In this document: positions 7,301 through 43,703 of the stretch, piece by piece
Layout of the letters: the number at the start of each line of letters is the position of its first letter
Numbering within the stretch: the stretch's first letter is position 1
Assembly: GCA_001940985.1 (NCBI GenBank)
Contig: MSHB01000022.1
Coordinates: forward strand, 35,393-99,392
Direction of reading: 5' to 3'
Length of the DNA stretch: 64,000 nt
Source: Mollicutes bacterium Phil14
Lineage (GTDB): Bacteria > Bacillota_I > Bacilli_A > ML615J-28 > CAG-698
Program-made: the position numbers and the translations under genes
The notes under the pieces: model-generated
Seen by the model: only the letters and a program-made list of their open reading frames with translations
Told to the model about the DNA's origin: nothing
Databases searched by the model: none

Positions 7301-10300
7301 CTCTTATCATCGGTTACTATTTCAATTTGATATTGACTAATTGTAGAACTACTACTATTAGAACCAATACTTATATTATTTTGTAATAAACTAGCCACAT
7401 TACTAGGATTAGTTACAGTTGCTCTATTACTGCTATAATTTAAGTTAGATACACTAGTATTACCTGATACAACTACATTTCCATTAATAGTAGTATTTAG
7501 ACTAATAGTTTTATTATCTGAACTTTGTTTTTTTACAGTCCTTTGAACAGTTTCAGTTGCATAATTTGAAGTGTAATTGTTACCATTTATATTTTCGTTG
7601 TATGGTGCATATCTTCTTGTACTTGTAGTTATCTCTTCATATTCAAGTGAATCTAACGTAACTGAAGTAATTCTATACGTGTAGTTATTTCCCCAGAAAC
7701 TTCTTGTAATTGTAATAGATTTTATATCACTATCTGTTAAAGCATTTACTAATTCACTTGTAGTAGTACTTCCTGTAGTATAACCAACAACTAATGCTTG
7801 TGTTGTATCATTACTTCTTGCAGAATAATACGTATCTTCTTTTCCTGTTACTTTTAATCTATAAAATATATAAGCTCCATATGAAGAACCATCCACTCTA
7901 CCAATCATATCAACTTTAGAATCCATATTTAAAATATTCACAAAGTTATTTGATTGCATTACACCACTATTACCTCTTTGTAAACGTCCAAATATTCCTC
8001 CAAAACCACGTCTTGCATTAGGATATAATGACAAACTAACTGATTGGCTTGGAAAAATAAATGTGTTTTCATCTTTATAGATATAACTTGTATCACTTGA
8101 ATTATTCATATAATTGCTATTTGTGATATCTTTTAACACGGTATATGTAAAATTACTATAATTACTGTATTTAGCTGCTTTTACTTTTCCATAATGGATA
8201 GCAGTATCAATATTACAATATGTAATAGTAAGGTTACTTGTGTCTGCACTACCTAATACATATGTAGCTCCTACAATTCCACCAGCAACATCAGTTGAAA
8301 CAATAACTCCATGATTTAACATTCTAGTCATTATACATAATCCATATGATATTACTCCACCACTACAAGCAAAAATTCCTGGTCTACGACCTTGAGAAGT
8401 TCCACTGCCGTTGTTTTGGCCACTAGTAACACGAGTTCCATCTAAATTACCTATCTTATTTGAGATTGCGGTAATATTTCCAAAATTCAATCCATTTGAC
8501 AATTTACAATTAGCTATTCTATCGCCATTACCAACTGTGCACCAAGAAAATTTCTTTTGACCATTATTACTAGAATCAATTGATGCAGTTCCCGCGGTTA
8601 ATTCAACTCCCAAAGCAACAGCTAATATTCCACCACTTCTAACATATTGATTAGCTTTTCCTGATATATTACCATTGTTTGAAGAATCAACTATTTGCGC
8701 AGGCTCTACAACTTCATCACTATAACCAGCTAAAATTGTTGCACTAGTATCGGCCATTGCACTAACAACACCACCAAGTGCAAGTCCACCATTATATGCA
8801 AAAACTAATCCACCATATAAACAATTTGGTGTATCACCACCAGCTACATAAGTAGTACCACTACTTGAATTAATATATGTGATATCACCTGAATTAGCAC
8901 AATCTTGTATAAAGTTATAATTAAAAGTAACTATTCCTCCAACGAACGTATTGCACGTACCAATAATAGTTGCCCCATTACCATCATCAGAAGTTATATC
9001 AGCTCTATTCATAGAATTAGTGATTGAACCAACATTTAAATTAAATAATCCTGCTACATAAAGATTATTAGAATTAATAGTTGCCCTGAAACTAGTACTT
9101 GTTTGTGATGTTCCACTAACACCACTAATAGATGTATTCCCACTAATATTACTAGTTATAATCTTGCCTTCATTAATACAATTTATGGCTTTGTAAGTTT
9201 TATTATTTAAACTTGGTAAAATCCAAGATATCCCTGATATATATATATCTTTATTATTGCAAATTCCATTAACTATAATGTTACCACACATTGATACGTT
9301 TTTATAATCAACTTTATTAGCTAAAGTAATGCCTGCTACTTTCATTTCCCCATTGACGTTATTTTCGCCACCATCAATTGTAATATTACCATTGTTTTGA
9401 CAATACAACAATTCACATTCTTTATCATTAACAGACATAAAAAATGATGAGATATTAATACTTTCCACACTTTCATTAAAAAATGTAGAATCATATGTAT
9501 AAGAAGCTTCATTATAAGCTCTTGATAAAATAATACCATTACCATTATCTAATATTGTTGAACTATAATATATATTTCTGTTGTTATTATAACTATTATA
9601 GTTTTCTATTTCAAAACCAGCATTATTAATCATATAAGAAAAGCTAACTTTACTAATATCTGATGTATTTACTCCAATACCAGCTAAATAGTTTTTAGTA
9701 CTTGCGTTGTATTTACTAACAATAATACCATTATTTTCAAATCTACCGCTAATTAAATCACGATTATTTTTTGATATCTTAATTCCATTATTACTTTTTC
9801 CAAACACGCCACCAACATAAATATTAGCCGAAGCACTATTATCTATGGCTCCATTTATGCTACCATCATTTGTTAAGTAAAAATATTCATTGCTAGTTTC
9901 ACTATTATTATTCATATTACCAATAATGCCACCAGCGCAAATAACTACTTCATTTTCAGTAATGACATTGTTAATTGTTTTTATATTAGCATTGTTATAT
10001 GCATATTCAACTCTTAACCCCTTTTCACTACTTCCACCTATTATTCCACCATAATAATATTCTAAAGATGTATTATAATCTGTATAATTGTGCGTAGCAC
10101 TACCATCAATAGCACCATTAAGATTACAAACATAACTAATGTTACCACTTCCGTAGCCAACTATTCCTCCTATACAAGTTTTTCCTAAACCAGAATTACT
10201 AAAATCAAAATAATTAGTATTCTCATTAACTCTATTAGTAATATTTTTAATATTTCCAGAACTCAAATATGCACTAACTATACCAGCATATATCACTTTT

Positions 10301-11976
10301 CCATAATCACTATTATCACCAACTAAAGAAATAGTTGAGTCTATAAAATTAATATTTTTAATTGTTCCCTTGTTTATACCTACTAATCCATAATACACTT
10401 CTTTTTCTGTATAGTGAGAAGTAGTAATATTTAAATTCAATATACACTTATTATTATTGGTATTTGAATCTAAAGAAAAATCATCATCTCCACCTTTTAA
10501 AACTCCTTTAAATTCCGTTTTAGGAGTAGGATAATTAACATTTTTCATATCTATGTTATTATTTAAAACATATGTATGTTCATTAAATTGCTTTCCATAT
10601 GTTTTGCTTTTTAAAGATAAAAGTTTTGAAAATGTAATTAAATCAATATCTTTCTTTATCAAGTAACAATTATTACTTTCATCATATTCTAATCCAAAAA
10701 TTTGAGGCAAACTATCGCTTGCATAGAAATGCCATATTCTCTCATCATTTATTCCCTTTGAACTTAAGCTTACACTATTAATGTTTATATTTTCACCAGT
10801 AGTTATTTTTTCACTACTATATGCGCTTATTCCCAAAACATCAAGATTATCAGTACTAATCAAATCATCGTTATAGCAAACCCCACTAATCTCCCCACTG
10901 TTTTCGCAGACAATAGGATAACTTTTAAATAAATAACTTGAACCACTACTTACTACCCTTTGACTAATGTAATAGGAATTATAAATCTTACCTGTTTTGT
11001 TATTTTTATTTACTAAACCACTAGCATAAAATGTTTGTGTTTGTACTGCTCCTAATTGCAAATTCCAAATAATACCTGAATCATCCAAAGATACACCTGA
11101 ACTAATTTTAGTGCGTTTATCTATAACTGCAGTATTATAAACTAATCCATTATTTTCTCCAACCAAAATTGATGTATTAGTTAATCCATCAGGAATATCT
11201 AATAATTCAAAAATAGGATTTTCAATTATTAAATTGCAAATTATTCCACTTTCACCAACACTTGCAAACATTGAATAATAGTTATTAAGTGCAATATCTA
11301 CTTCTGTACTTTGATCATCTTGATTAAATCTGTAAATCATTGATATATAGTCATATCCAGCCAAATATAAATTCTTTATTTTAAAACCATTACCATCAAA
11401 ACTTCCCGTGAATGGATAATAGTTTCTAGTTTTTTCTTCATCAGGAGTAATAAAATCAATTCCTAATGGAATAAATTGTTTTGACTTCATTTTCGAATAA
11501 TCAATATCATTTATTAAACAATAATTAAAACTTAAAATTGTTTTTATTGTTTTTAAATTTGGATAAATATTAGCTGTTGCTTTATTTTTCCAATTATAAC
11601 AAGCATCAACTGATAGATAGTATAACTCTTCAGGAGTTGATATCGTTACTCGTTTGTCTAAAACAAACTCATTTATTTCATCACTCATTTTTTCATCTCT
11701 AACTGAAGATGATAAAGATGAATCATTCATATACTTCTCAATTATATTATGAATACTATTGTAATCTACCATCTTTTCACTACTAGTAGATTCACTATTA
11801 ATTAAAGCATTAAAAAAAGAAAAATCATTACTAAATTTACTATCAGCAGATACTTTTATGCTATTACCTTTATCAATGAATACACATAAAAATATAAAAA
11901 CAATGATGATAAAAGTTAACAATAATCCTAAACTTTTCTTTGAAATATTTTTAAAATTCATATTAGCACCTACCAA
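4327..11976 (-). CDS. Giant (2549 aa) N-terminally anchored or secreted surface protein. It is rich in Ser/Thr/Asn/Gly and has many G-G-(I/V)-(V/I)-G-type repeats. Putative beta-helical adhesin or matrix protein.
   Basis: Uninterrupted 7.65-kb ORF with an N-terminal hydrophobic signal or anchor (LGLLLTFIIIVFIFLCVF). It has dozens of motifs such as VAGGIVG, CIGGIVGYGSG, YYGGIIGGSS, CAGGIIGN and YVGGVFG. There is no LPxTG motif and no C-terminal TM. Its start overlaps the stop of the upstream TasA-like gene by 7 nt, indicating co-transcription. Confidence 0.8.
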   Translation of the reverse strand: MVGANMNFKNISKKSLGLLLTFIIIVFIFLCVFIDKGNSIKVSADSKFSNDFSFFNALINSESTSSEKMVDYNSIHNIIEKYMNDSSLSSSVRDEKMSDEINEFVLDKRVTISTPEELYYLSVDACYNWKNKATANIYPNLKTIKTILSFNYCLINDIDYSKMKSKQFIPLGIDFITPDEEKTRNYYPFTGSFDGNGFKIKNLYLAGYDYISMIYRFNQDDQSTEVDIALNNYYSMFASVGESGIICNLIIENPIFELLDIPDGLTNTSILVGENNGLVYNTAVIDKRTKISSGVSLDDSGIIWNLQLGAVQTQTFYASGLVNKNNKTGKIYNSYYISQRVVSSGSSYLFKSYPIVCENSGEISGVCYNDDLISTDNLDVLGISAYSSEKITTGENININSVSLSSKGINDERIWHFYASDSLPQIFGLEYDESNNCYLIKKDIDLITFSKLLSLKSKTYGKQFNEHTYVLNNNIDMKNVNYPTPKTEFKGVLKGGDDDFSLDSNTNNNKCILNLNITTSHYTEKEVYYGLVGINKGTIKNINFIDSTISLVGDNSDYGKVIYAGIVSAYLSSGNIKNITNRVNENTNYFDFSNSGLGKTCIGGIVGYGSGNISYVCNLNGAIDGSATHNYTDYNTSLEYYYGGIIGGSSEKGLRVEYAYNNANIKTINNVITENEVVICAGGIIGNMNNNSETSNEYFYLTNDGSINGAIDNSASANIYVGGVFGKSNNGIKISKNNRDLISGRFENNGIIVSKYNASTKNYLAGIGVNTSDISKVSFSYMINNAGFEIENYNSYNNNRNIYYSSTILDNGNGIILSRAYNEASYTYDSTFFNESVESINISSFFMSVNDKECELLYCQNNGNITIDGGENNVNGEMKVAGITLANKVDYKNVSMCGNIIVNGICNNKDIYISGISWILPSLNNKTYKAINCINEGKIITSNISGNTSISGVSGTSQTSTSFRATINSNNLYVAGLFNLNVGSITNSMNRADITSDDGNGATIIGTCNTFVGGIVTFNYNFIQDCANSGDITYINSSSGTTYVAGGDTPNCLYGGLVFAYNGGLALGGVVSAMADTSATILAGYSDEVVEPAQIVDSSNNGNISGKANQYVRSGGILAVALGVELTAGTASIDSSNNGQKKFSWCTVGNGDRIANCKLSNGLNFGNITAISNKIGNLDGTRVTSGQNNGSGTSQGRRPGIFACSGGVISYGLCIMTRMLNHGVIVSTDVAGGIVGATYVLGSADTSNLTITYCNIDTAIHYGKVKAAKYSNYSNFTYTVLKDITNSNYMNNSSDTSYIYKDENTFIFPSQSVSLSLYPNARRGFGGIFGRLQRGNSGVMQSNNFVNILNMDSKVDMIGRVDGSSYGAYIFYRLKVTGKEDTYYSARSNDTTQALVVGYTTGSTTTSELVNALTDSDIKSITITRSFWGNNYTYRITSVTLDSLEYEEITTSTRRYAPYNENINGNNYTSNYATETVQRTVKKQSSDNKTISLNTTINGNVVVSGNTSVSNLNYSSNRATVTNPSNVASLLQNNISIGSNSSSSTISQYQIEIVTDDKSDTSKTYIFSDSFPLMDSEQANYIYAASNDVLADRFKNETSLNYKPNGMYVLATTKGRDAGDVLPGNLKIDDLYKLNEKDEIKYIDLSNVSSKDLIDSGLNVEEMLLDYKSMFQISYSDKSLIQQKDDNGSTLYDLVLYDKNNNSPILRGGLVGSDEYGLPTITFTVSNSAFNFVNNKTDLNYYVKSAVLSENAVIAKYGITANEHHDFRNYYNLRSSNVLDGIYEASISGTLTKNSRLEFEDKIRVYSEIACNVSSLVEKYVTDYKIIIECVSEELSVDFSAVVDSASSIVDSITNGYIIKNNVSPDGKVECLFTDNNGVLASEYELSVIGLYRENTLIDSAYYKLEIVKLNNRQFGFTISFSNKLISGEYEIRYRYYDNIIEDYSIFITKEKSQYYNITNVFYNTFSYDISGNILEFLEEKDTDFITYIQFGYMFSKVKYGLTNSIDLTIETINNLEEISYLNNVDSYVIKIDDTEIERIYVSEFSKLIKTSVYYTYTNGNREYVMTYVIENEVGSINTIVHRIVEREPDNIVVYKNNNIQYGTTFIVYREDLLTTFDIDFGFEIDREVLNGQIKMLLDEIVFDEEEMKSKIYLNIGTYYSVNITSLLEPGSKGYKFILVRDGEEKEMLSIVIDKLLGKSAYLEDIDFQLDSDTTLVYPNIYEVDMLGNKISNTLYDARTYYGGIDYDGADNDNVRYFRIDGKVTNISLDDYSPSFTNPIGSSIYRYTGSNWDGSDTNNWSTELKGDFIGNDEEKDTVILYKIVSEDGESTVYYFITASDILYNLTIRFTIYYRFANGNIVLGSDPSSPIKNQVVVITIKNYQLQGDLADYSVTIDPNDPNHIIYPYEASELDKEGITKYITGLNNQMSMFYYPIDATKYQYSFGRNYSGCYGFTAITPKYKGESNGTLINGRRYEYDIYLATGSKGTYGWNSDSYKLHDLDLNNKYDGKYHFISGSTKNRIREFALVVNEKTSGGNWGLTDEDISWDK

Positions 11977-31811: not shown

Positions 31812-32105
31812 TTAAAGTGGTAAGTCTTTCCTTACAAACTTAACAGTTCCTAGTATATAACCTATTAAACCAAGTCCTAATAGACATCCAAATTTCCAAA
31901 TAAATGCCGTTGTTTCTTCTAATATTGAAACAACATCAAACATAGATATTATAGTAATATAATTGAAATAATTCAAAGAATCAAGTCTTACAACTGATGG
32001 AATAGTTTTACTACCGAATAGGCCTAAAATTGCGGCTACTAAAGCAAAAATACTTAAACCACCACCAATAGCCATTGAGCCACTATCAACTTGACCAGAA
32101 ATCAA
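31812..32105 (-). CDS. Small hydrophobic protein (97 aa). Possibly a remnant of the permease partner of the truncated ABC ATPase.
   Basis: 2-3 predicted TM helices. Start overlaps the stop of the upstream ABC ATPase ORF by 4 nt. Confidence 0.3.
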   Translation of the reverse strand: MISGQVDSGSMAIGGGLSIFALVAAILGLFGSKTIPSVVRLDSLNYFNYITIISMFDVVSILEETTAFIWKFGCLLGLGLIGYILGTVKFVRKDLPL

Positions 32106-32695
32106 ATTGTTTTTCCTCTTTCTTTTTCTTGATGTATAAATTCAATAAAGCGTTCTTGCATAACTGGGTCTAACCCACTTGTAGGTTCATCTAAAATCAA
32201 GACATCAGGATCACTCATAAATGCAACAACAACCGCCAATTTTCTTTTAACCCCTAAACTCATTCTTTTGGTTTCACCATTTAATGCTATTTCATCTAAT
32301 TCAAATAAATCTAATAACATTTTTAATCTTTCATTAATATGTATGCCTTGTAAATCTTGCATCATTTTAATGAATTCTTTTCCTGTTATTCCTGCGGGCA
32401 AAGCTATTTCACCTGGTATATAACCTACTTTAGCCAAAATTTCATAATGCTTATTAAATGTTTCATAGCCAAAAATTTTTGTACTCCCACTATCTGGTTT
32501 AGAAAATCCCATCAGATGACTGATTGTTGTAGACTTCCCTGCCCCATTAGGTCCTAAGAAACCAAAAACTTCGCCCTTTTCAACATCTATACTTACGCCA
32601 AAAACTCCACGACCAGAGCCATAATCCTTAGTTAAATTTTTAACTTCTATTATGCTCATTTTTCCTCCTTTTTTCAACACTGTTAACATTTTCAC
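32102..32695 (-). CDS. ABC transporter ATP-binding protein, C-terminally truncated (no H-loop). Possible decaying gene.
   Basis: 197 aa. Walker A GPNGAGKST, Q-loop, signature LSLGVKRKL, Walker B and D-loop LILDEPTSGLD. The ORF ends at TGA right after ...ERGKTI. No H-loop sequence is present in any downstream frame. Confidence 0.55.
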   Translation of the reverse strand: MKMLTVLKKGGKMSIIEVKNLTKDYGSGRGVFGVSIDVEKGEVFGFLGPNGAGKSTTISHLMGFSKPDSGSTKIFGYETFNKHYEILAKVGYIPGEIALPAGITGKEFIKMMQDLQGIHINERLKMLLDLFELDEIALNGETKRMSLGVKRKLAVVVAFMSDPDVLILDEPTSGLDPVMQERFIEFIHQEKERGKTI

Positions 32696-35152: not shown

Positions 35153-36694
35153 TTATATTTTATATATATCTGTAATATCATTTTCAATCAATAATATTTT
35201 TTCTTTTTTAATACCTTTATATATATCAAATCCTTCATTAAAACTATTAACAATAGCTACATTATCATAACCTAATTCTTCTAAACCCTTCTGAATATAA
35301 CTTGATGCTTTATTTTTAACTAAAATTACCATATCACAAGATTCTTTTATATATTTAGCAAGAGAATAGTTAATTTCTTCTTCTAATTTGCCTCCTTCAA
35401 CAATCCCCGGAGTTATTAAAACTTTGTATGAGTCAAACATCTTCAAAGTATCTAAGGCATTCCTAAATCCGACTTTATTAGAGTTGTAACTATCGTTTAA
35501 CACAAGCTCATCATAAAAGTATTCTAATTTCAAACGGTTTTTCTCTCCATCATACATTAAAATTCCTTTTTCAATTGAACTTTTTTTAACATTAAAAACC
35601 TTTGCCATAGCTATTGCACACAAAATATTATAAATATTATGCCATCCTAAAATTTTAGTCACAATAGAATAATTTTCATCTCGACTAATCACTTCAAACT
35701 TTAGTCCTTCGCGATTATAGACAATATTTTGTGCCTTAAAATCGGCGTTTTCGTTTATTGCTACAGTTATTTTGTTTTTATATTTTTCTGATTCTTTTTT
35801 TATATTTTTATCATCTATATTTAACACTACTTTTTTAGTACTACTTGCTAAAAGCATTTTCTCATTAATTATGTTATCTAAACTTTTAAAAGTTTCTAAA
35901 TGCTGTTCTCCTATCGCAGTAACAATACCATAATCAGGTTTTACCAAATCAATCAAACGTTTTATATCATTTTTTTCACTAGCACCAAATTCAAAAATTG
36001 CTACCTCTGTATTTTTACTCATATTTTCATTAACACTTAAACAAATACCATTTAAAGTATTATAAGACTTTTCAGTTCTAAATGTTATAAACTCTTCTTT
36101 TAAAATATTATATAAAATTGCTTTTGTTGAAGTTTTTCCATAACTACCAGTAATTGCAATCTTTTTACAACCAATACGCTTTAGTTTTTTCTGACATTTT
36201 ACTTTATAAAACAAATATATTCCTTTTTCTATTGGTAACATTAAACAAGAAGATATAAAAACTAAAATGTTTTCAAATAAAATCAAAATAATAATAGCAG
36301 ATAACAACTCTTTAAGATTAAATTTCACTAATATCAAAGTCGCTAAAAGACTATTCACTATTAAAATTCCAATATATAATCTTATTATTCTTGTTGTGAA
36401 CTTTAATTTAACAATCTTTTTTTCTTTTTTTTTCAAAACTAAAAATAAAGAACCTATCAAGACAAACAATATCATTCCGTATATCTTATCACTTATAAAT
36501 ATTAATGGAATCATTGCTAAAAACAAATAGTTTTTATTTTTAAATTTATAATAATCCTTAAATATTTTTTTATAACCAGACAAATGATAATGAGCTTGTT
36601 GGTAGATTTGTAAAATATCATTAGTTATTCTTACTAAAACTAAAACACCCATCACAATTGATAAATATTCTAATATATTTCTTAATATTTCCAT
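35153..36694 (-). CDS. murF: MurF-like Mur ligase (UDP-MurNAc-tripeptide--D-Ala-D-Ala ligase family) with an unusual roughly 170-aa N-terminal transmembrane region.
   Basis: 513 aa. Residues about 1-170 are hydrophobic helices. The Mur ligase central domain follows with KIAITGSYGKTSTKAIL and TEKSYNTLNGICLSV (compare MurF TEGNxNNxIGxPLT), then a C-terminal domain. The usual N-terminal UDP-MurNAc-tripeptide-binding domain is absent. Confidence 0.65.
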   Translation of the reverse strand: MEILRNILEYLSIVMGVLVLVRITNDILQIYQQAHYHLSGYKKIFKDYYKFKNKNYLFLAMIPLIFISDKIYGMILFVLIGSLFLVLKKKEKKIVKLKFTTRIIRLYIGILIVNSLLATLILVKFNLKELLSAIIILILFENILVFISSCLMLPIEKGIYLFYKVKCQKKLKRIGCKKIAITGSYGKTSTKAILYNILKEEFITFRTEKSYNTLNGICLSVNENMSKNTEVAIFEFGASEKNDIKRLIDLVKPDYGIVTAIGEQHLETFKSLDNIINEKMLLASSTKKVVLNIDDKNIKKESEKYKNKITVAINENADFKAQNIVYNREGLKFEVISRDENYSIVTKILGWHNIYNILCAIAMAKVFNVKKSSIEKGILMYDGEKNRLKLEYFYDELVLNDSYNSNKVGFRNALDTLKMFDSYKVLITPGIVEGGKLEEEINYSLAKYIKESCDMVILVKNKASSYIQKGLEELGYDNVAIVNSFNEGFDIYKGIKKEKILLIENDITDIYKI

Positions 36695-36720
36695 ACATTT
36701 CCTTTCAAATTACCTATATT

Positions 36721-36802
36721 ATAGCAGCCATTTTATTTATCGCCAATAAAATTCAAAAGAATAGATAAAAACTTCTCTTTTTCATCCATATAACTAAAAT
36801 GC
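36721..36802 (-). pseudogene. Remnant of an alpha/beta-hydrolase gene: the last about 25 codons only (...WHFSYMDEKEKFLSILLNFIGDK*). It is homologous to the C-terminus of the intact gene at 40751..41515.
   Basis: About 90% nucleotide identity to 40755-40817. The translation matches the C-terminus of the 254-aa hydrolase (GHFSYIDEKEKFLSILLNFICS). Confidence 0.6.
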
Positions 36803-36895
36803 CACAAGATTTTAAATTATTAAAAAATAAATTTCTTTTATATTAAATATTATGTGATTCGTTATTACTTATGATTAAAATATATTAAAATATGT
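36721..36895. repeat. Direct repeat, copy L. It fuses the 3' end and the 5' UTR/promoter region of the alpha/beta-hydrolase gene with the gene body deleted.
   Basis: 36747-36802 matches 40759-40817. 36847-36895 matches 41518-41565 (AAATATTATGTGATT...TACTTATGATTA...). Copy R surrounds the intact hydrolase gene. Confidence 0.65.
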
Positions 36896-36926
36896 TATTC
36901 ATCAATCAATTTGATAGCATCTTTAA

Positions 36927-38723
36927 CTATTCATCAGCATTTTCAATTATGTATCTTTTATATTGTGATGTATACCATTTTTTATATAATCCATTTTTAT
37001 TAAACAATTCATTATGATTCCCAATTTCACACACCTTGCCATTATCTAAAATTATTATTTTATCAGCTTCCTTAGAATTAGCTATCATATGAGAAACTGT
37101 CAATGAACTTACTTCACCTTTTTCATTATAGATATTTCTAAATATCTTATCTTCTGTATAAATATCCAATGATGCTGATGGTTCATCCAAAATATAGTAT
37201 TTATTGTTAGTAAAATATGTTCTTGCCAAAGAAGTAAGTTGCCATTGTCCACCAGACATTTCGATTCCATCATCATAATATATACCAATAACTGTATCAA
37301 TTCCTTTTTCCCATGTAGAAACCAAATCAAATATTCCACTTTTCAAACAAGATTGTTTTATTAATTCATCATTATTTATTTCATTAAAATTTGATAAGGC
37401 TATAATTTCTCGAAAAGGAAGAGAATAGTTTATATAGTTTTGAAATAAAACAGCAAACTTTTTTCTAATAGTAGAAAAGTCATAATCATAAATATTTTTA
37501 TCATTTAATAAAATACTACCTCTCTCTATTTTATAAAAACACAACAATAATTTTATAATTGTTGACTTACCTGATCCATTGCTTCCTAACAAGGCAACTT
37601 TTTCTCCTGGTTCAATAGTAAATGAACAATCTTTCAAAACATAATAATTGGTATTTGGATATTTAAACCATACATTTTTAAATTCAATTTTGGGAATTGA
37701 TTTATCTTGCTTTAAACAACCTTTTTTTTCATACAAAATATTTTCATTAAAAAAATCATTTACAATAGAAACGTTATTAACATCATATAAAAAATTATTA
37801 AAATCAGAAAATATCAAATTTAAATTATCTTGAAAGTTAGTAATAATTCCTAAATAATACGATATTAAAGCAATTGTGATAGTTCCAATTTTGTACTGTT
37901 GTACAAAGACAATCAAAGAAAAAATATAGATCAATATTCCAAAAAATCTAACAAAATCGGAACTTCGGCTCTCTTTATTTTTAAAATGAAATTGATTATT
38001 ACTTAACTCGCTTTCTAGCGTTTCTATCTTTTCATAAAAAAAATCTTTATTATTAAACATTCTGGTTTCATAATTTGTAATTTTATTTTCTATAATTCCT
38101 TTATAATATAATATTTTTTTTGAAATTTTTTGAACGTTATTTGTATGTTCATTCTTCTTCTTAACCATATAATTACTTAAAAAAATTAATATTGGTAATG
38201 CTAATATAGCAATAATAAAGATACCTATATTTATCTTAATTAACACTAATATTAGCATGATTGAAGATATAAAATCACTTATTAAACTCAAAGTATTCCA
38301 TCCAATATCAGCAAAGTCATCATACTTACTTCTAATAAATTTCATTTTATCATTTAATGAACATTCTTCATAATATCTTTGATCAATGTTCCTCATTTTT
38401 TTTATAATATTTTTTTCTAAAAAAAACATCATATTCTCATTATATCTATCATTGATATAAATGTCGACTGGATTTAATACTTTTTTAAAAGAATATGCAA
38501 ATATCAATAACAAAGACAAAATCACAATTTCTTTATGAACCACATTGTTAACTTCAAATTGCGAAATTATATTACTTAAAATCTTAGAATAAAATATCCC
38601 ACTAAACGTAAATAACAAAGATATTACAATTTTAAGTATACAAAAAAAGGGACTTGCTAAAAAAGAAATTTTAACAGATTTCAATAATTCAATTATTTTT
38701 TTCTTCATTTGACCCTCCATCAA
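36927..38723 (-). CDS. ABC exporter, fused transmembrane domain plus ATPase (second subunit of a heterodimeric pair).
   Basis: 598 aa. Six N-terminal TMs then an NBD with LLGSNGSGKST, LSGGQWQ and ILDEPSASLD. Confidence 0.85.
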   Translation of the reverse strand: MMEGQMKKKIIELLKSVKISFLASPFFCILKIVISLLFTFSGIFYSKILSNIISQFEVNNVVHKEIVILSLLLIFAYSFKKVLNPVDIYINDRYNENMMFFLEKNIIKKMRNIDQRYYEECSLNDKMKFIRSKYDDFADIGWNTLSLISDFISSIMLILVLIKINIGIFIIAILALPILIFLSNYMVKKKNEHTNNVQKISKKILYYKGIIENKITNYETRMFNNKDFFYEKIETLESELSNNQFHFKNKESRSSDFVRFFGILIYIFSLIVFVQQYKIGTITIALISYYLGIITNFQDNLNLIFSDFNNFLYDVNNVSIVNDFFNENILYEKKGCLKQDKSIPKIEFKNVWFKYPNTNYYVLKDCSFTIEPGEKVALLGSNGSGKSTIIKLLLCFYKIERGSILLNDKNIYDYDFSTIRKKFAVLFQNYINYSLPFREIIALSNFNEINNDELIKQSCLKSGIFDLVSTWEKGIDTVIGIYYDDGIEMSGGQWQLTSLARTYFTNNKYYILDEPSASLDIYTEDKIFRNIYNEKGEVSSLTVSHMIANSKEADKIIILDNGKVCEIGNHNELFNKNGLYKKWYTSQYKRYIIENADE

Positions 38724-40479
38724 ATTTTTTCATTTGAAAATTGTAAAAATTATAATATTCACCCTTGCGAGACATTAACTCACTATGTGTGCCTTCTTCA
38801 TAAATTTTTCCATCTTTAAGCAAAAGTATTTTTGAAGACATCTTCCCCACAAAAATTCTATGAGATATTAAAAAAACTGTATGCTCATTAGATAATTCTG
38901 AGTATTTTTTAAACAATCGATCCTCAGCTTCAACATCTAAAGAAGCTGATGGTTCATCTAAAATAATGATATCTGATTTCTTAAAGTTCATTCTTGCTAG
39001 TGCTAATTTTTGCCATTCTCCTCCTGATAATTCTCTCCCATTATCATCAAATTTTTTAGAAATATTAGTCTCTAAATCTCTGTCAGAAAAAACATCTAAT
39101 AAATCAGCATCTTTAATAGCTTTTAATATATCTTCATCATTATTAATATTTTTCAAATCGCTTATGGCGATACTTTCTCTTAGTGACAACGAATACTTCC
39201 CAAAGTTTTGAAATAATGTCCCGATTTTTTCTCTTACAGAAGATAAATTATATTTCTCCAATTCTATTCCATTAATTTTTATACTGCCAGATAATGGTTT
39301 ATATAGTCCTAAAATTAATTTTACAACCGTACTTTTACCAGAACCATTTGTTCCAAGTAGACAAACTGTATCTCCTCTGTTGACTTTAAAACTAACTCCA
39401 TTAAGGACTAGTTGACTAGAGTTAGGATATTTAAAATACACATCATTTAATTCTAAAGTTTTGAAATCTTTCAAACAAATCCCTTCACTTGTATTATAAT
39501 TTCCACCTTGATTAATAAATTTGTAATATTTATCGTAATATAAAAAGAACCTATAACTTTGCCCCAAAACATTATTAACAAAACCTATTGAATATACATA
39601 TACCAACGAAACTATTGATACATAAAATTGTATATCACTAATAGCTATTCCATTATTAAATGCTTTTGTAAAAATTCTAATTATAACAATTCCAAAAGGT
39701 ATAATTGGTATTAATTTTATAATAATAGACAATATCATATTTTTTCTTGCTAACATTTCATTTTTATCTATATATTCTTTTTTCTCACAAAAATATTTCT
39801 TCTCAATATACTCATATGAATCGTATAATTTCATATCCCTAATAGGCACCCCATCTGTTAACATCCATCTATAATAAGCTGTTTTTCTAATGTCCGGTAT
39901 CATTTCAATATGCCAATCATCTAATTTTTTACCAAATATGAAACTTATAATTGAACAAGGTATAATTGAAACAATAAATAATATACCACCATAAAAATCA
40001 TATCCAATTAAAACATATGAATAATAAAAAAATATAATTATGCTTGTAACTTGACTCACCATAAGTAACGGGGAATTAACCATAACATTTATAGATCTTT
40101 TTATAGTCGCAATAATATTATAATACCTTGGATTTTCTAAGCATTCACAATCAATGGTCAATAACTTATCATAAAAAACTTTTTGAAAATGTCTTTTAAA
40201 ATTAAAATTAATTTTGACAGTTATTAATCTTTTTATACGTTTGAATATATAAGTTAACAAAAACGCGGCAACAATTAGACATATATATACATATATAATA
40301 TCAAAATCATTTGTTAAAAAACTATCAATTATTTTTTTTACTATTAATGTATCTATATAAGGACATACATATATAGCAAATGATAAAAAACAATATGACA
40401 AAAATAATAATTTGTTTTGAATAAATATAAATTTAATTATATAATTAATTTTTTTTATTTTTTTCAATACTACCTCCAA
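38689..40479 (-). CDS. ABC exporter, fused transmembrane domain plus ATPase (first subunit). Overlaps its partner by 35 nt.
   Basis: 596 aa. Six TMs then an NBD with LLGTNGSGKST, LSGGEWQKLALAR and ILDEPSASLD. Confidence 0.85.
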   Translation of the reverse strand: MEVVLKKIKKINYIIKFIFIQNKLLFLSYCFLSFAIYVCPYIDTLIVKKIIDSFLTNDFDIIYVYICLIVAAFLLTYIFKRIKRLITVKINFNFKRHFQKVFYDKLLTIDCECLENPRYYNIIATIKRSINVMVNSPLLMVSQVTSIIIFFYYSYVLIGYDFYGGILFIVSIIPCSIISFIFGKKLDDWHIEMIPDIRKTAYYRWMLTDGVPIRDMKLYDSYEYIEKKYFCEKKEYIDKNEMLARKNMILSIIIKLIPIIPFGIVIIRIFTKAFNNGIAISDIQFYVSIVSLVYVYSIGFVNNVLGQSYRFFLYYDKYYKFINQGGNYNTSEGICLKDFKTLELNDVYFKYPNSSQLVLNGVSFKVNRGDTVCLLGTNGSGKSTVVKLILGLYKPLSGSIKINGIELEKYNLSSVREKIGTLFQNFGKYSLSLRESIAISDLKNINNDEDILKAIKDADLLDVFSDRDLETNISKKFDDNGRELSGGEWQKLALARMNFKKSDIIILDEPSASLDVEAEDRLFKKYSELSNEHTVFLISHRIFVGKMSSKILLLKDGKIYEEGTHSELMSRKGEYYNFYNFQMKKFDGGSNEEKNN

Positions 40480-40565
40480 ATTTTTTTATTAATGTAAGAA
40501 TACTATACTTTAAAAAAAGACCCTTGATTAACTCAAGAGTCATAACATTTTAATTGATTAATATT

Positions 40566-40634
40566 TTAAAACAAACATACCACAAAGAGATATGATTGAT
40601 AGGAAATTAAAATTGTTGATGACTCTTTTTTCAT
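40566..40634 (-). CDS. Small ORF (22 aa, MKKESSTILISYQSYLFVVCLF) with a strong ribosome-binding site, immediately upstream of the ABC exporter pair.
   Basis: AAAAAGGAGGTATTTGAT precedes the ATG. It lies between a consensus-like promoter and the ABC genes. Not in the ORF track because it is below the length cutoff. Confidence 0.3.
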   Translation of the reverse strand: MKKESSTILISYQSYLFVVCLF

Positions 40635-40687
40635 ATCAAATACCTCCTTTTTGGATATTTTTTTAAAATATATTTACTTATGTCTAA

Positions 40688-40716
40688 ATTCTATCACATT
40701 AATAAATAAAATGCAA
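40688..40716 (-). promoter_or_regulatory. Sigma-A-type promoter (TTGCAT, 17 nt, TAGAAT) for the small ORF and ABC exporter pair.
   Basis: Minus-strand TTGCATtttatttattaatgtgaTAGAAT about 50 nt upstream of the small-ORF ATG. Confidence 0.5.
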
Positions 40717-40750
40717 GATTTTTGTATTCTAAAGTTATCATACATCTTAA

Positions 40751-41515
40751 CTAAGAACAAATAAAATTCAAAAGAATAGATAAAAACTTCTCTTTTTCAT
40801 CTATATAACTAAAATGCCCACCACGATAAAAAACTTTCATTTCACTTCCGTTGATTAAATTATTCATTGTTTTGCTATCATTTAGAGGTACTTCTTTATC
40901 AAAAACGCTTCCAATAACTAAAGTTTTACATTTAATCATTTTCATTTCTTTCTTTAAGTCCTTTTTAACAACTTTTTTAAAAGTGCCTCTCATATTATAT
41001 GAAAGCATATTATAATCCCTTGATCCATTTTTTCTAATAAAACTATCATAATTTTTATTATTAAAAACATAAACCATTAGTTTTTTTATCTTGTATAAAT
41101 AAAGCTTTGAGTAATACTTAAAATTATGGTGGCAAATGCCAGCAGCATTAACTAAAACAATCCCCTCAACGTTAAAACTGCTAGCATATTTAATTGCTAC
41201 TCTTCCTCCAAAAGAATGTCCAACAAGTATAACTTTATCAATTTTTTCTTCTTTTATTAATTGGTGCAAGTGATTACTATAATCATCTACACCTATTGCT
41301 TTGTTTGGTTCATCACTTAAACCAAATCCTAAAAAGTCAACATTATAAATATTATACTTTATCCCACTTTCTTTTATTTTTTCAATAACATAATCAAAAG
41401 TATTATGGCTTTGACCCCATCCATGTAAAAAAATAATACTTAGAGAATCATCACTATCTAGATGTTTCTCATAATACATATCACCATTTTTTGTTTTTAT
41501 ATATAAATCTCTCAT
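40751..41515 (-). CDS. Alpha/beta-fold hydrolase (esterase/lipase family).
   Basis: 254 aa. GHSFGG nucleophile elbow (GxSxG), with IFLHGWGQS near the N-terminus. Confidence 0.8.
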   Translation of the reverse strand: MRDLYIKTKNGDMYYEKHLDSDDSLSIIFLHGWGQSHNTFDYVIEKIKESGIKYNIYNVDFLGFGLSDEPNKAIGVDDYSNHLHQLIKEEKIDKVILVGHSFGGRVAIKYASSFNVEGIVLVNAAGICHHNFKYYSKLYLYKIKKLMVYVFNNKNYDSFIRKNGSRDYNMLSYNMRGTFKKVVKKDLKKEMKMIKCKTLVIGSVFDKEVPLNDSKTMNNLINGSEMKVFYRGGHFSYIDEKEKFLSILLNFICS

Positions 41516-41600
41516 ACTAAATATTATGTGATTAATTGCTACTTATGATTATAAAATATATCAAAATAAATAAAAAGGACTTTTTAAGCCCTTTATATTG

Positions 41601-43703
41601 TCATTCATTCTTTTTAAACAAACCATATTTTAAAACCTTATCATTAAAATCTTTATACTTTAAAACAGTATCGATTGCATCTTGAGGTTTTATTATTGGA
41701 TATCCACTATAGTTCTTATCATAACATACTTCCTTAGAAACACCAGAAATAGTTACACCATCTAAAATGATATCCATATTCCTTGGGTTATATCCATATG
41801 TGACTTCGTCTGATAAAATATCAACACCGAAACTATATTTATTATCTAAATTAAATAAATTAGATATTGTTCTAGATATTGAATTATGACTTCTTACTAA
41901 ATGATATGGTTCTAAAGAAAATTCTGTTGTTTCACTACCATCATAGATAATAAATGGTACTTCAAGTAACATTCTTCTTTCAATAAGCTCTTGATATTCA
42001 TTTCCCTCTTCAAGCATATCATTAATGTCATTACTTAAGATATCTTTGTTTTCATAAAACATATTATATATATCTATTCCACATCCATGATCGCCATACA
42101 TAATAACAACAGTATCTTCTAATAATCCTGTTTCTTCTAATTTTTTTAGCGCTTTACCAATTGCAAAATCGCTATATGAAGCATGTTCTAAATATGCCAT
42201 ATATTGTTCATCAATTGCATTATATCCTAAAGGAAATATTCTTTCCTTTTCTAAGAACATATTTTTACCTTCATCAGTTAATAACCCTTTATCACTAAAG
42301 CTCATTTCATATGGCATATGACAAGAAATAGTTATTGCAAAATTGAAAATCGGCTTATTAAGTTCATCTCTTTTTTGCTTCATAAGTTCTATATTGTATT
42401 CTAAAAAGTCAACATCATTAACCCAAGTATGCACTAATCTATTTTCATCATATACTCCTACACTTTGTAATACTCTTTCATCAATATGTTCATTAAACCC
42501 ATATAGTGTTGGATGTAATGTGCTTCTTAAATAGAATGTACCAATATTAGCATGAGATGAATAACTATAATATCCCTTTTGGTTAAATAACTTAGGAATT
42601 GTTTCATAATCTGTGTTTTCAGCATATTCATAAACAGTATAAGAATATCCAGTCGGATAAAGACCTGTCAAAACTGTAAACTCAGCATCACTAGTATTAC
42701 CAATTCCTACAGTTGTATAGTAATTATCAAAGTAAGCACTCGATGTTTTTTTAACTAATCTATTTAAATTAGGAGTAACTTCTTTTATTTCCCCATTAAC
42801 ATTAACCTTAAGGCCAATCAAAAAGTTATTCATCGATTCGATTTGAATTAGAAGTAAGTTCTTCCCTTCAAACACTCCTTTATATTTCTTATTATTTAAC
42901 TCTTCTTTGACTTCATCAGTTAGATATTTTTCAAGTTCGCTAGAAACATTTTTAATTTTATCATCAGTAGGATTTTTATCACTAAAGAACAAATAATCAG
43001 CTACTTCATAGAAATAATAATTAACTACTCCAATAGTTTGAACACCTTCAGCAACCAATTTTAAATCTTCATAACCTTTTTGTTTTGTTTCTCCTCGATA
43101 AAATGCTGTTGATGATACCATAGAAATAATACCAAAAACAATTAATGCAAAAGCTAAATATAGTCTTTTTGTTTCTCCAATCAATTGATGACCTTTAACT
43201 TGAGGAGACACTTTAATTTTCTTATGAGCAAAAACAAACCAAACAACTATCAATATTAAAAGTGGTAACATAAACAAAAATTGTGCATTTCTAATAAGCG
43301 TTAACAAAGAAGAAAGCAAAAAGATAAATGCATCTCCACCACTATCTCCAGAAAATGATTTCAAATTCCAAATTGAAGGGAATGTTTTGTAATAAGAATA
43401 ATACACACTTATTACTAACATAAAAAAGGAAGTTATTCCAGTTACCCATATTAAATACTTTCCTGCTCTAATGTCACTTTTAAATATAAAAATAGCAAAT
43501 CCCAAAGAAAGAATTAAAAATCCTAAATCGCCAAAAAAACATGATAGAAAAGTGGCAAAAGTTTTAGGTAAAACCAGCATATCACGAACATATATCTTGC
43601 TATTAATCACATATAAATTTAAGAAATTCAATAATAAAAACAGCCCTATAAATATAATTTTAAAACCATTTTCACTTTTAAGGAAATTTTTAATCTTTTC
43701 CAT
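41601..43703 (-). CDS. LTA-synthase-family (LtaS-like) sulfatase-superfamily membrane protein.
   Basis: 700 aa. Five N-terminal TMs followed by a large extracytoplasmic alkaline-phosphatase/sulfatase-fold domain (architecture of LtaS/YfnI). Confidence 0.75.
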   Translation of the reverse strand: MEKIKNFLKSENGFKIIFIGLFLLLNFLNLYVINSKIYVRDMLVLPKTFATFLSCFFGDLGFLILSLGFAIFIFKSDIRAGKYLIWVTGITSFFMLVISVYYSYYKTFPSIWNLKSFSGDSGGDAFIFLLSSLLTLIRNAQFLFMLPLLILIVVWFVFAHKKIKVSPQVKGHQLIGETKRLYLAFALIVFGIISMVSSTAFYRGETKQKGYEDLKLVAEGVQTIGVVNYYFYEVADYLFFSDKNPTDDKIKNVSSELEKYLTDEVKEELNNKKYKGVFEGKNLLLIQIESMNNFLIGLKVNVNGEIKEVTPNLNRLVKKTSSAYFDNYYTTVGIGNTSDAEFTVLTGLYPTGYSYTVYEYAENTDYETIPKLFNQKGYYSYSSHANIGTFYLRSTLHPTLYGFNEHIDERVLQSVGVYDENRLVHTWVNDVDFLEYNIELMKQKRDELNKPIFNFAITISCHMPYEMSFSDKGLLTDEGKNMFLEKERIFPLGYNAIDEQYMAYLEHASYSDFAIGKALKKLEETGLLEDTVVIMYGDHGCGIDIYNMFYENKDILSNDINDMLEEGNEYQELIERRMLLEVPFIIYDGSETTEFSLEPYHLVRSHNSISRTISNLFNLDNKYSFGVDILSDEVTYGYNPRNMDIILDGVTISGVSKEVCYDKNYSGYPIIKPQDAIDTVLKYKDFNDKVLKYGLFKKNE

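Follow-up and report, generated by a model that had tools for sequence, protein, structure and literature searches.

A strain-variable ABC exporter island at a hydrolase/murF-ddl junction and its likely descent from a radical-SAM RiPP operon

A described counterpart of the locus reported here is bmrBCD of Bacillus subtilis, in which a heterodimeric ABC exporter is controlled by ribosome-mediated attenuation at a leader ORF (PMC4191407). The stretch of DNA that was analysed, 64 kb long and hereafter called the window, carries a locus of the same layout, namely, a promoter, a small ORF, a terminator with alternative stem-loops, and two overlapping genes for ABCB-type half-transporters. Unlike bmrBCD, however, its leader has no sequence relationship to bmrB, its terminator follows the small ORF whereas that of bmrBCD lies inside the bmrB ORF, its two nucleotide-binding sites look canonical in the translations (Walker B LDE, H-loop His, and signature LSGGE/MSGGQ in both subunits), and a leader of this type normally heads an entire RiPP operon.

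Two other kinds of locus are comparable in content. In contigs L022 and L040, which represent two more distant lineages, the rSAM/SPASM maturase best matches CcpM, and as in CcpM-type rSAM RiPP clusters (TIGR04068, with the ACP-like TIGR04069) there are an ACP-like protein, adenylating enzymes, an ABC pair at the 3' end, and a precursor of 52-56 aa with a C-x-C-x-S-C-x-C core. The window differs in having none of these biosynthetic genes, which are present in L022 and L040 and partly in L037, and the L022 maturase scores below the curated cutoff. Orphan bacteriocin immunity/exporter loci are similar in that biosynthesis has been deleted, purifying selection has preserved the export module together with its regulation, and the locus is polymorphic within a species, but what the window retains is an ABCB-type pair (putative immunity) and not a dedicated immunity protein or a LanFEG-type ABC-2 pump. 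For the arrangement of the flanks, transformation-driven tandem duplication through interchromatid pairing is a precedent for the origin model given below (PMC3784515), and homology-facilitated illegitimate recombination is the other mechanism for comparison (PMC3240628). Both mechanisms, like the proposed origin, combine a homologous pairing with a non-homologous or alternative one, and leave foreign DNA between resident duplicates without mobile-element genes. The documented merodiploids, however, are 100-900 kb in size with IS-repeat borders (PMC3784515; PMC3240628), whereas the unit in the window would be a single 0.85-kb gene, later reduced to 59 + 66 nt.

The insert and the repeats that flank it

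The features of the hydrolase locus and of the insert limits are as follows.

41574-41594, minus strand: intrinsic terminator that closes the LtaS-like gene upstream and marks the native 5' limit of the hydrolase locus (terminator scan)
41503-41568, minus strand: U, native hydrolase 5' region and first codons, R copy (82% identical to 36827-36892)
40751-41515, minus strand: intact alpha/beta-hydrolase gene, 254 aa (Pfam Abhydrolase_1/6)
40760-40818, minus strand: E_R, hydrolase 3' end, the copy adjoining the left junction, J1 (58/59 against 36745-36803)
36804-40759, minus strand: inserted DNA, 3956 nt, not in empty-site strains (alignment to L018 and L027-L034)
36827-36892, minus strand: U', diverged hydrolase 5' copy with ATA for a start, at the distal end of the insert (82% to U)
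36745-36803, minus strand: E_L, non-coding remnant in native position just upstream of murF (59-nt direct repeat)
36718-36746, minus strand: murF promoter, TTGGCG-17 nt-TATAAT with TG (promoter scan)
35153-36694, minus strand: Mur ligase resembling MurF, extended by a hydrophobic N-terminal stretch, natively the gene downstream of the hydrolase (Pfam Mur_ligase_M)

All genes in the region are on the minus strand. The ABC cassette had been described as lying between direct repeats of hydrolase sequence, and these repeats are real. Repeat E, 59 nt long and identical at 58 positions, is about the last 20 codons of the 254-aa hydrolase and ends 7 nt short of the stop codon, while repeat U, 66 nt long and 82% identical with one 2-nt indel, holds the hydrolase 5' region and the first 4-8 codons. 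The local-alignment scores, 56.5 for E (shuffle maximum 19.5) and 33.5 for U (shuffle maximum 17.5), were reached by none of 2000 dinucleotide-preserving shuffles, and the identity of the two segments is thus well above shuffled background in both repeats. Elsewhere in the window the best match to either segment scores no more than 16, and a 33-nt core of U has exactly two occurrences in the 64 kb against 0 expected. Copy L has ATA in place of the start codon and lacks about 690 nt of hydrolase coding sequence; the gap from U' to E_L is 23 nt, or about 45 nt if counted from the conserved U core, which agrees with the spacing given earlier. Copy L is a decaying hydrolase remnant with an internal deletion. 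A WalR-type or other direct-repeat operator in U and U' was weighed by eye and dismissed, since neither the spacing of the half-sites nor their sequence fits.

That the cassette is accessory at the hydrolase locus, as the preliminary description proposed, is borne out by nine same-species metagenome contigs (L018, L027-L034) which have an empty site, that is, a single hydrolase followed directly by murF-ddl and no cassette. Positions 1-837 of L018 align to 41596-40760 of the window and positions 779-1137 align to 36803-36445, and E_R is positions 779-837 of L018, which align to both copies of E. These contigs fix the insert limits exactly, with a 59-nt target duplication on either side. In L018 the terminator of the LtaS-like gene is contiguous with the hydrolase, and the U region is 99.6% identical to that of empty-site strains. 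The R hydrolase likewise agrees with those of the empty sites (mismatches: 3 in 837 nt to L018, 1 in 756 nt to L030 and to L028), except that its last two codons and stop (…ICS*) are supplied by the insert in place of the native …GDK*, so that filled alleles encode 254 aa ending in ICS and empty-site alleles 255 aa ending in GDK. On the other side, the -35 hexamer of the murF promoter begins at the final two bases of E_L, and J1 falls exactly between ATT and GGCG. Synteny of the MurF-like gene and the hydrolase is seen in L001-L016, and in 14 of 17 related Erysipelotrichaceae loci the Mur ligase directly follows the hydrolase, the other three having no upstream sequence; the outgroups have no island at this site. 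The MurF-like protein scores 198.8 bits against NCBIfam murF, under the cutoff of 288.6.

The window's junctions recur in four independent assemblies (L021, L035, L037, L038) and therefore the cassette arrangement is not an assembly artefact. The island is a strain-variable insertion at the hydrolase/murF-ddl junction of an AT-rich Erysipelotrichaceae-like gut bacterium. It is absent from most strains of the species: among 14 listed cluster members the hydrolase ends in GDK (native, empty) in 11 and in ICS (filled) in 2, and the empty allele is the majority. Exact look-ups of the window's hydrolase and of P0254, a cluster member identical to it, matched no recorded entry. The cassette had also been called recently rearranged, and this does not hold. 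Between filled alleles the divergence is 0.9-1.8% (dS 0.02-0.06), which equals the difference between flanking housekeeping genes, and since this is about 1% the insertion is not recent. Copy L has gained 1-4 substitutions, varying by strain, and E_L differs from E_R at one position in the window and at 2-4 positions in L021, L035, and L037. The flanks of the empty-site contigs are 99.2-99.9% identical to the window, and the window's flanks are nearer to those of empty-site strains (99.6-99.9%) than to those of other filled strains (98.2-98.8%); LtaS is 100% identical between the window and the empty L030, yet 98.8% identical between the window and the filled L021. Gain, loss, and exchange of the island cannot be put in order from these flank similarities.

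A transposon or integrative-element origin was rejected because the leader ORF and two ABC proteins are all that the insert encodes, with no transposase, integrase, or recombinase gene, and has no terminal inverted repeats among the 71 inverted pairs found. In addition, the 59-nt flanking duplication far exceeds the length of duplications made by transposases.

The exporter pair and related RiPP operons

The coding part of the insert and the junction next to it consist of the following.

40486-40511, minus strand: deletion scar, where a longer allele has 2277 nt (L037 junction alignment)
38689-40467, minus strand: ABC1, ABCB-type half-transporter, 592 aa, TTG start after GGAGG (Pfam ABC_tran)
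36927-38708, minus strand: ABC2, second half-transporter, 593 aa (Pfam ABC_tran and ABC_membrane)

The ATG of ABC2 is 20 nt ahead of the ABC1 stop, so the two reading frames overlap by 20 nt. Both proteins match ABC_tran (ABC1 1e-31, ABC2 5e-25), and the motifs of the nucleotide-binding domain, GTNGSGKST/GSNGSGKST, LSGGE/MSGGQ, ILDEPSASLD, and SH(R/M), are found in both translations. ABC2 matches ABC_membrane (PF00664) at 1.4e-7 (31.9 bits, cutoff 28) and aligns to TM288 over residues 84-585; ABC1 has no Pfam match to a membrane domain and aligns to MsbA over residues 54-575, its best PDB matches being the NBDs of ABCB1/ABCB4. Both exporter genes are intact and held under purifying selection, with dN/dS values of 0.15-0.29 for ABC1 and 0.09-0.11 for ABC2 beside 0.03-0.24 for neighbouring genes. 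Neither protein reaches a family cutoff among the curated NCBIfam models and their substrate is therefore not readable from homology. A C39 peptidase domain, which in PCAT bacteriocin exporters takes up about 130-150 aa at the N-terminus, had no match in the 592- and 593-aa proteins, and alignments to the PCAT models TIGR01193 and TIGR03796 start at profile position ~157 or later, past the N-terminal peptidase region. The terminator scan found no terminator after ABC2, so transcription past ABC2 would run on towards murF-ddl.

The cassette is not a self-contained ABC module, as the longer alleles show. Window positions 43800-40512 align to 1419-4741 of L037 and positions 40485-36050 align to 7019-11463; the 2277 nt in between encode an AMP-binding enzyme, a truncated 217-aa gene, and a 54-aa Cys-rich precursor. 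This long allele occurs at the same junctions in two samples, L037 and L038. L022 and L040 both have the full operon, its genes in the same order and the ABC pair last: the leader, an acyl/aminoacyl-adenylating enzyme, a 475-aa protein, an ACP, and a second ligase are followed by a CcpM-like rSAM maturase, small proteins, the Cys-rich precursor, and the two ABC half-transporters. The L022 maturase matches TIGR04068 (CcpM) at E = 8.5e-125 with 417 bits, below the curated cutoff of 500, and the exporter of the L022 operon is 69% identical to ABC1. When nine biosynthetic and precursor proteins of L022 were compared with the 64-kb window by tblastn no match was obtained. By these alignments, the insert is a radical-SAM RiPP operon reduced by two successive internal deletions, the first of about 4.9 kb and the second of 2.3 kb, to its promoter, the leader ORF and terminator, and the genes of the exporter pair. 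It is most likely that the pump continues to export the Cys-rich peptide of relatives with the full cluster and thereby protects against it, in which case the exporter-only allele would be an immunity-only allele.

The leader region

Upstream of ABC1 the leader consists of three elements.

40688-40716, minus strand: operon promoter TTGCAT-17 nt-TAGAAT with TG before it (read from the sequence)
40566-40634, minus strand: leader ORF, 22 aa (MKKESSTILISYQSYLFVVCLF), with the SD GGAGG at 40643-40647 (conserved in four lineages)
40512-40551, minus strand: intrinsic terminator, stem 40541-40519 and T-run (terminator scan)

The content of the cassette is as described before (promoter, 22-aa ORF, and two overlapping ABC genes), except that the terminator between the small ORF and ABC1, with its 9-bp stem and T7 run, had been missed. 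The ORF is also more than a small gene, since together with the terminator it forms a regulatory leader conserved in four lineages. The promoter hexamers and their spacing are conserved in L022, L023, and L040, and the promoter, the SD (8 nt ahead of the ATG in the window), the ATG, the ORF length (22-26 aa), and the terminator are kept in all four lineages. In L023 this module heads an RsgA ribosome-GTPase paralogue and the same pump. The window lineage reads the middle of the ORF in a different frame (A6 against A7, with a compensating +1 indel) while SD, ATG, and ORF persist, and therefore it is the RNA and the ORF that are conserved and not the peptide.

Codons 3-9 of the ORF (~40609-40627) make up the antiterminator segment b, which is complementary to segment d (40535-40551), that is, the terminator 5' arm and the nucleotides just upstream of it. 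Because the register of L040 is shifted by 2-3 nt from that of the other three lineages, support for the pairing was taken from duplex energies against shuffles. The b:d duplex has -18.8 kcal/mol in the window (-13.7 to -18.8 across the four lineages) and was reached by 0 of 1000 shuffles in the window and in L022, 1 of 1000 in L023, and 12 of 1000 in L040, which retains the pairing with a different sequence; the a:c duplex was reached by 9-34 of 1000. Since three of the four lineages are invariant in the key segments, support from covariation comes mainly from L040. The leader fold has a z-score of -5.6 and forcing the antiterminator costs just 2-6 kcal/mol above the MFE. The a:c and b:d pairings are nested in a pseudoknot-like manner and are not strictly exclusive, and masking of ribosome footprints during folding gave no consistent prediction of read-through across the lineages. 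Rfam 15 gave no match at E <= 1 on either strand of 36400-41900, and a JGI metagenome scan with the leader pattern gave none either; a JGI scan with the terminator only returned a single contig, L039, which was rejected as a coincidental terminator after an unrelated gene in a higher-GC organism.

The promoter, the 22-aa ORF, and the terminator are probably a translation-sensing transcription attenuator. The first ~10 codons of the ORF would pair with the terminator 5' arm to form the antiterminator, and a second pairing is possible between the SD region and the 3' half of the ORF; because the antiterminator pairing overlaps the ORF, ribosome position would decide read-through into the ABC genes. 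It could be argued that the ORF instead encodes a functional small hydrophobic peptide, a pheromone or toxin exported by the ABC pair, and that the hairpin is a leaky terminator of the kind common after the structural gene in RiPP and bacteriocin operons. The ORF does have a strong SD and heads a RiPP operon, and the compensated frameshift leaves both the MKK N-terminus and the hydrophobic C-terminus (…VCLF, …VCLLF, …CVQLF) in place. However, residues 4-16 are frame-shifted in the window lineage where the nucleotides are still 80-90% conserved, what the L040 peptide has in common is mainly the residues that the RNA-pairing core encodes, the pairing with the terminator arm has statistical support in all four lineages, and the operons already have a separate, typical Cys-rich precursor, and we regard an exported peptide as quite unlikely. 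We can suggest, tentatively and with more doubt than conviction, that the leader belongs to an undescribed attenuator family heading CcpM-like RiPP operons and that the orphan allele is kept as an inducible immunity pump against a peptide of neighbours with the full cluster. With the link to ribosome sensing and RsgA, that peptide might then act on translation.

Origin of the island and what it means

Within copy L, E has diverged at 1 of 59 positions and U' at 12 of 66 (Fisher p = 0.0025). Because of this difference a single duplication of the resident hydrolase locus does not explain both halves. Thus, the duplication followed by internal deletion that had been proposed earlier survives as a part of the best model but not as one event for the whole of copy L. 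U' is nearly identical among filled strains and far closer to the U of its own species than to the upstream region of a sister species. In the model that we prefer, U' would have come with the island from a related donor which had the island directly upstream of its own hydrolase. Integration, across sister chromatids, would have relied on homology at the hydrolase 5' end for one side and on an illegitimate join (J1) for the other, to give hydrolase-island-hydrolase, and the second hydrolase copy would afterwards have lost its ~690 nt internally. The 59-nt repeats would now permit precise loss of the island and, with homologous exchange between strains, the locus would stay polymorphic. The evidence that points to this origin is the unequal divergence of U' and E, and the E copies could instead have been homogenised by gene conversion; the route by which the duplication arose is one that we infer. 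Among the recovered contigs there was neither a donor with the order LtaS-island-hydrolase nor an allele with two full hydrolase copies. Taken as a whole, the explanation that combines a RiPP-remnant insertion, an intact pump, an attenuator leader, and a donor-derived U' is in our judgement likely.

Three other histories have to be weighed against it. If the filled allele were the old one, many or most empty sites would be products of precise deletion between the 59-nt repeats, which are a classical deletion substrate, and such a product would look identical to a naive site. The interleaving of empty and filled strains in flank similarity, as in LtaS, fits this, but homologous exchange of either allele between strains gives the same pattern, and the outgroups are without the island here while the empty allele is in the majority; this polarity is somewhat improbable. 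Alternatively, a non-replicating circle carrying E, the island, and U' could have crossed over once with the chromosomal 59-nt E in the Campbell manner. A single crossover in E predicts the exact order that is observed, hydrolase-E-island-U'-E-murF, makes the near-identity of the E copies expected, and renders a second deletion step unnecessary. The circle, however, needs a ready-made fusion of U' to E, that is, a deleted hydrolase allele which is itself unexplained, the insert has no recombinase, replication, or transfer gene, and a homology of 59 nt is short for RecA-mediated recombination, all of which makes such a circle unlikely. Finally, the hydrolase locus could have been duplicated in tandem in situ, with the island inserted between the copies and the distal copy internally deleted, which was the first option of the preliminary description. 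In its favour, the two ends of the hydrolase locus both occur in copy L, correctly ordered and oriented. Here three independent events are required, and U' is 18% diverged from U and E_L 2-7% diverged where strain-to-strain diversity is only ~1%; duplicates of equal age should diverge alike unless gene conversion hit E only. We consider this very unlikely.

The locus, well documented yet fairly ordinary as a strain-variable island, presents four decay states of one island, namely, the full operon (in relatives), the core-deleted form, the exporter-only form, and the empty site, and the species-level alleles all have base-exact common junctions. The 59-nt duplication together with a foreign-looking 5' copy of the target would be a rare footprint of integration without mobile-element machinery, and it lies just where the essential murF-ddl genes have their promoter. 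The leader is a testable candidate for a new attenuator controlling a poorly studied RiPP class. A regulated pump that selection retains once the chemistry is gone is consistent with immunity-only cheating in bacteriocin ecology.

The hydrolase-murF locus with and without the insert

The G+C content of the window is 27% and the minus strand carries almost all of its genes. The locus is laid out as follows.

Features of the insertion locus (source of the call in brackets)
43703-41601, minus: LtaS-like sulfatase-family gene
41594-41574, minus: terminator of the LtaS-like gene (terminator scan)
41515-40751, minus: alpha/beta-hydrolase gene, 254 aa (Pfam)
40716-40688, minus: promoter TTGCAT-17-TAGAAT (read from sequence)
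40634-40566, minus: GGAGG and 22-aa ORF
40541-40519 plus T7, minus: intrinsic terminator (terminator scan)
40467-38689, minus: ABC1, half-transporter (Pfam)
38708-36927, minus: ABC2, half-transporter (Pfam)
36926-36695, minus: non-coding stretch between ABC2 and the MurF-like gene
36694-35153, minus: MurF-like Mur ligase (Pfam, NCBIfam)
35018-33918, minus: Ddl (Pfam)

ABC1 and ABC2 share 20 nt of overlapping reading frame. The preliminary description does not mention the terminator at 40541-40519. Since the terminator scan found none 3' of ABC2, read-through would run on towards murF, whose own promoter (36746-36718) is retained and begins with the final two bases of E_L, the left one of two 59-nt direct repeats. 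The MurF-like ligase (35153-36694, minus) has a hydrophobic N-terminal extension of ~170 aa, common to its relatives in the related loci L001-L016, and scores 198.8 bits against the curated murF model, under the cutoff of 288.6.

E_L (36803-36745) lies inside the non-coding stretch and is identical at 58 of 59 positions to the hydrolase 3' end, E_R (40818-40760). Sitting 23 nt upstream of E_L is the 66-nt segment U' (36892-36827), with 82% identity to U (41568-41503), which spans the 5' region and initial codons of the hydrolase gene; the hydrolase ATG reads ATA in U'. None of 2000 dinucleotide-preserving shuffles equalled either the E or the U match and nothing comparable to E or U occurs elsewhere in the window. 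Therefore, the preliminary description of an ABC exporter pair between direct repeats with a deleted hydrolase copy was accurate as to the repeats.

At 99% identity, P0001 is the nearest relative of the hydrolase protein, and its C-terminus is GDK as against ICS in the window; the remnant ORF in copy L (U' plus the E_L remnant) encodes exactly GDK. In L018, the contig of P0001, positions 1-837 align to window 41596-40760 and 779-1137 to 36803-36445 at 99.4-99.6% identity, so that the 59 nt at 779-837 are present once in L018 and twice in the window. This two-part alignment shows that L018 is the empty site and gives base-exact edges to the insert, which is 3956 nt long (40759-36804). LtaS, hydrolase (255 aa), murF, and ddl are in series on 15-20-kb contigs of eight more samples (L027-L034) with flanks 99.2-99.9% identical to the window. 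The C-terminus is GDK in 11 and ICS in 2 of the 14 members listed for the hydrolase 90% cluster. Of 17 related Erysipelotrichaceae loci drawn from species-representative genomes, 14 have the Mur ligase as the next gene after the hydrolase, the other three being without upstream sequence. The filled arrangement is not an assembly artefact because it recurs with identical junctions in four independent assemblies (L021, L035, L037, and L038).

In the sister species (L019:7204-8199 and L020:5208-6203, ~80% nucleotide identity) hydrolase and murF are separated by another ORF, of 191 aa and with no assigned family, and the hydrolase end is not duplicated. Insertions thus seem to recur at the hydrolase-murF junction. 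The record of the closest species-representative locus, L001 (CAZHCP010000045.1; same synteny, 61-74% amino-acid identity), names an 'uncultured Muribaculaceae bacterium', and this label or the binning is probably wrong because its genes and synteny match Erysipelotrichaceae-like loci.

Origin of the duplication and strain dynamics

The two parts of copy L differ in their divergence from the right-hand counterparts, 1/59 for E as against 12/66 for U' (p = 0.0025). U' is near-identical across all filled strains and is far closer to the upstream region of this species than to that of the sister species. The right-hand hydrolase is the native copy, differing from the empty-site alleles by 3/837 nt (L018) and 1/756 nt (L030 and L028). 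The insert has no transposase, integrase, or inverted ends. All of these data fit a model of four steps. The island would have come from a related donor where it was directly upstream of the donor's hydrolase; its hydrolase-proximal end would have paired homologously with the recipient gene; its other end would have undergone an illegitimate join at ATT|GGCG to produce hydrolase-island-hydrolase; and the distal hydrolase copy would later have lost ~690 nt. Interchromatid pairing of this type, driven by transformation, has been documented (PMC3784515). Alternatively, a circle carrying E-island-U' may have been integrated by a single crossover, or an in-situ duplication may have been followed by gene conversion.

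The preliminary description regarded the locus as a recently rearranged accessory cassette. It holds as an accessory insertion and copy L holds as a deleted hydrolase copy, but the event is not recent, because the cassette varies by 0.9-1.8% among filled alleles and E_L has acquired 1-4 changes specific to individual strains. The flanks of the window are nearer to those of empty-site strains than to those of other filled strains, and its LtaS is 100% identical to that of empty L030 and 98.8% to that of filled L021. The alleles are thus being reassorted, whether through homologous exchange, precise deletion across the 59-nt repeats, or the two together.

The hydrolase itself varies. Codon 16 of the hydrolase is an in-frame TAG in L018 (L018:127-129) and GAA in the window (41470-41468). 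Since the database protein P0001 shows Q at this codon, genes in its source were apparently called with a code that reassigns TAG; the contig is flagged as not translating to this protein. Another cluster member, P0250, is a 94-aa hydrolase fragment with a frameshifted tail called as a product on an NCBI contig of 1,487,367 nt. The TAG and this fragment suggest that the hydrolase is dispensable and under loss in some strains. A second strain polymorphism lies ~1.8 kb beyond ddl, with a breakpoint at ~32100 next to an ORF at 32102-32695 (minus). The alignment of the window to L030, L021, and L035 ends at 32100, past which these three have an apparent ABC-2-type transporter operon. Its ATPase genes (312 and 302 aa) are intact in L030 and L035, while the L021 contig ends within the second, and a 616-aa membrane gene is in L030 only. 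The window and L027 have only fragments of this operon, followed by tilS.

The insert as the remnant of a RiPP operon

Beyond the species, the closest homologues of ABC1 are ~70% identical and are in other genomic contexts. The ABC pair closes a 10.8-kb operon in L022, a more distant lineage recovered from the sample that also yielded the sister-species locus L019. Its order is promoter, 23-aa ORF, terminator, AMP-binding enzyme, 475-aa protein, ACP, second adenylate-forming ligase, radical-SAM/SPASM enzyme, three small proteins, a 56-aa precursor with the core GGSCSCSSCDCDE, ABC1', and ABC2'. The best match of the radical-SAM enzyme is TIGR04068, 'Cys-rich peptide radical SAM maturase CcpM' (417 bits, E = 8.5e-125, under the curated cutoff of 500). 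L040, from a more distant lineage, keeps the L022 order throughout at 27-53% amino-acid identity.

Two samples of the window's own species, L037 and L038, share these hydrolase-murF junctions and have a longer allele, with 2277 extra nt 3' of the leader terminator and the ABC pair after them. This segment encodes the AMP-binding enzyme, a form of the 475-aa gene truncated to 217 aa, and a Cys-rich precursor. L037 is collinear with L022 save for the absence of L022 4818-9680, and the window lacks a further 2277 nt relative to L037, with a scar at 40511-40486. None of the L022 biosynthetic proteins has a match in the 64-kb window. Thus, what had been described as an ABC cassette is not a simple ABC module but what two deletions have left of a RiPP operon: its promoter and leader and the exporter end. 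In the long allele a perfect 12-bp hairpin (AAGAGTATCATT…AATGATACTCTT, L037:6975-7010) lies 3' of the precursor gene, and the window retains just its 3' half (~40490-40505), so that the 2277-nt deletion has its right edge here. The exporter genes show no such decay: their dN/dS among filled strains (0.09-0.29) is within the range of LtaS, hydrolase, and murF (0.03-0.24).

The leader ORF and its terminator

Promoter hexamers and their spacing, SD, ATG, ORF length, and terminator are kept in the window, L022, L023, and L040. The run after the leader ATG (window 40626-40631) is A6 in the window, L021, and L037 and A7 in L022 and L023. In the window lineage this frameshift is offset by a compensating +1 indel 50 nt later, so that leader residues 4-16 are in a different frame while the nucleotides are conserved. 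This points to constraint on the leader RNA and on the presence of the ORF and not on the peptide sequence. Slippage on the A-run could switch leader translation.

The leader fold has a z of -5.6 against shuffles. Two pairings are conspicuous, a:c, of the SD/AUG with the 3' half of the leader ORF, and b:d, of ORF codons 3-9 with the terminator 5' arm and the nucleotides just upstream.

Leader pairings in four lineages (b:d energy; shuffles as good, of 1000)
Window: -18.8 kcal/mol; b:d 0, a:c 9
L022: -17.7 kcal/mol; b:d 0, a:c 16
L023: -17.8 kcal/mol; b:d 1, a:c 31
L040: -13.7 kcal/mol; b:d 12, a:c 34

In L040 the sequence flanking both b:d partners is unlike that of the other three lineages and yet the pairing is significant (12/1000), with ~14 contiguous base pairs when the sequence is read by eye. 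Forcing b:d carries a penalty of 2-6 kcal/mol relative to the terminated fold. An Rfam search of 36400-41900 on both strands found no matching family. The architecture is similar to that of the bmrB leader of Bacillus subtilis bmrCD (PMC4191407), although the sequences are unrelated. We infer that the leader would act as a translation-sensing attenuator. Folds computed with ribosome footprints masked did not agree among the lineages on the ribosome position that favours read-through.

In L023:6734-11607 the same leader (79% nucleotide identity) is followed by an RsgA-family GTPase gene (163.6 bits against TIGR00157, cutoff 100) and then by the ABC pair. RsgA is a ribosome-biogenesis GTPase, and its family member behind this leader hints at a link with ribosome state. 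The L023 leader and pump are directly upstream of genes for products with Mur-ligase, MraY, and Mur-ligase domains, and ABC2 there, unlike in the window, has a proper terminator after it. L023 adds a third genomic context for the module of leader and pump, once more beside cell-wall genes.

The insert is thus a decaying biosynthetic island with a regulated exporter left behind, a fresh example of a feature type that is already known. It is of moderate interest because an island has integrated at the end of a gene with no mobile-element machinery, leaving a 59-nt duplication, and because a conserved, apparently undescribed leader, predicted to be an attenuator, heads a CcpM-like RiPP operon.
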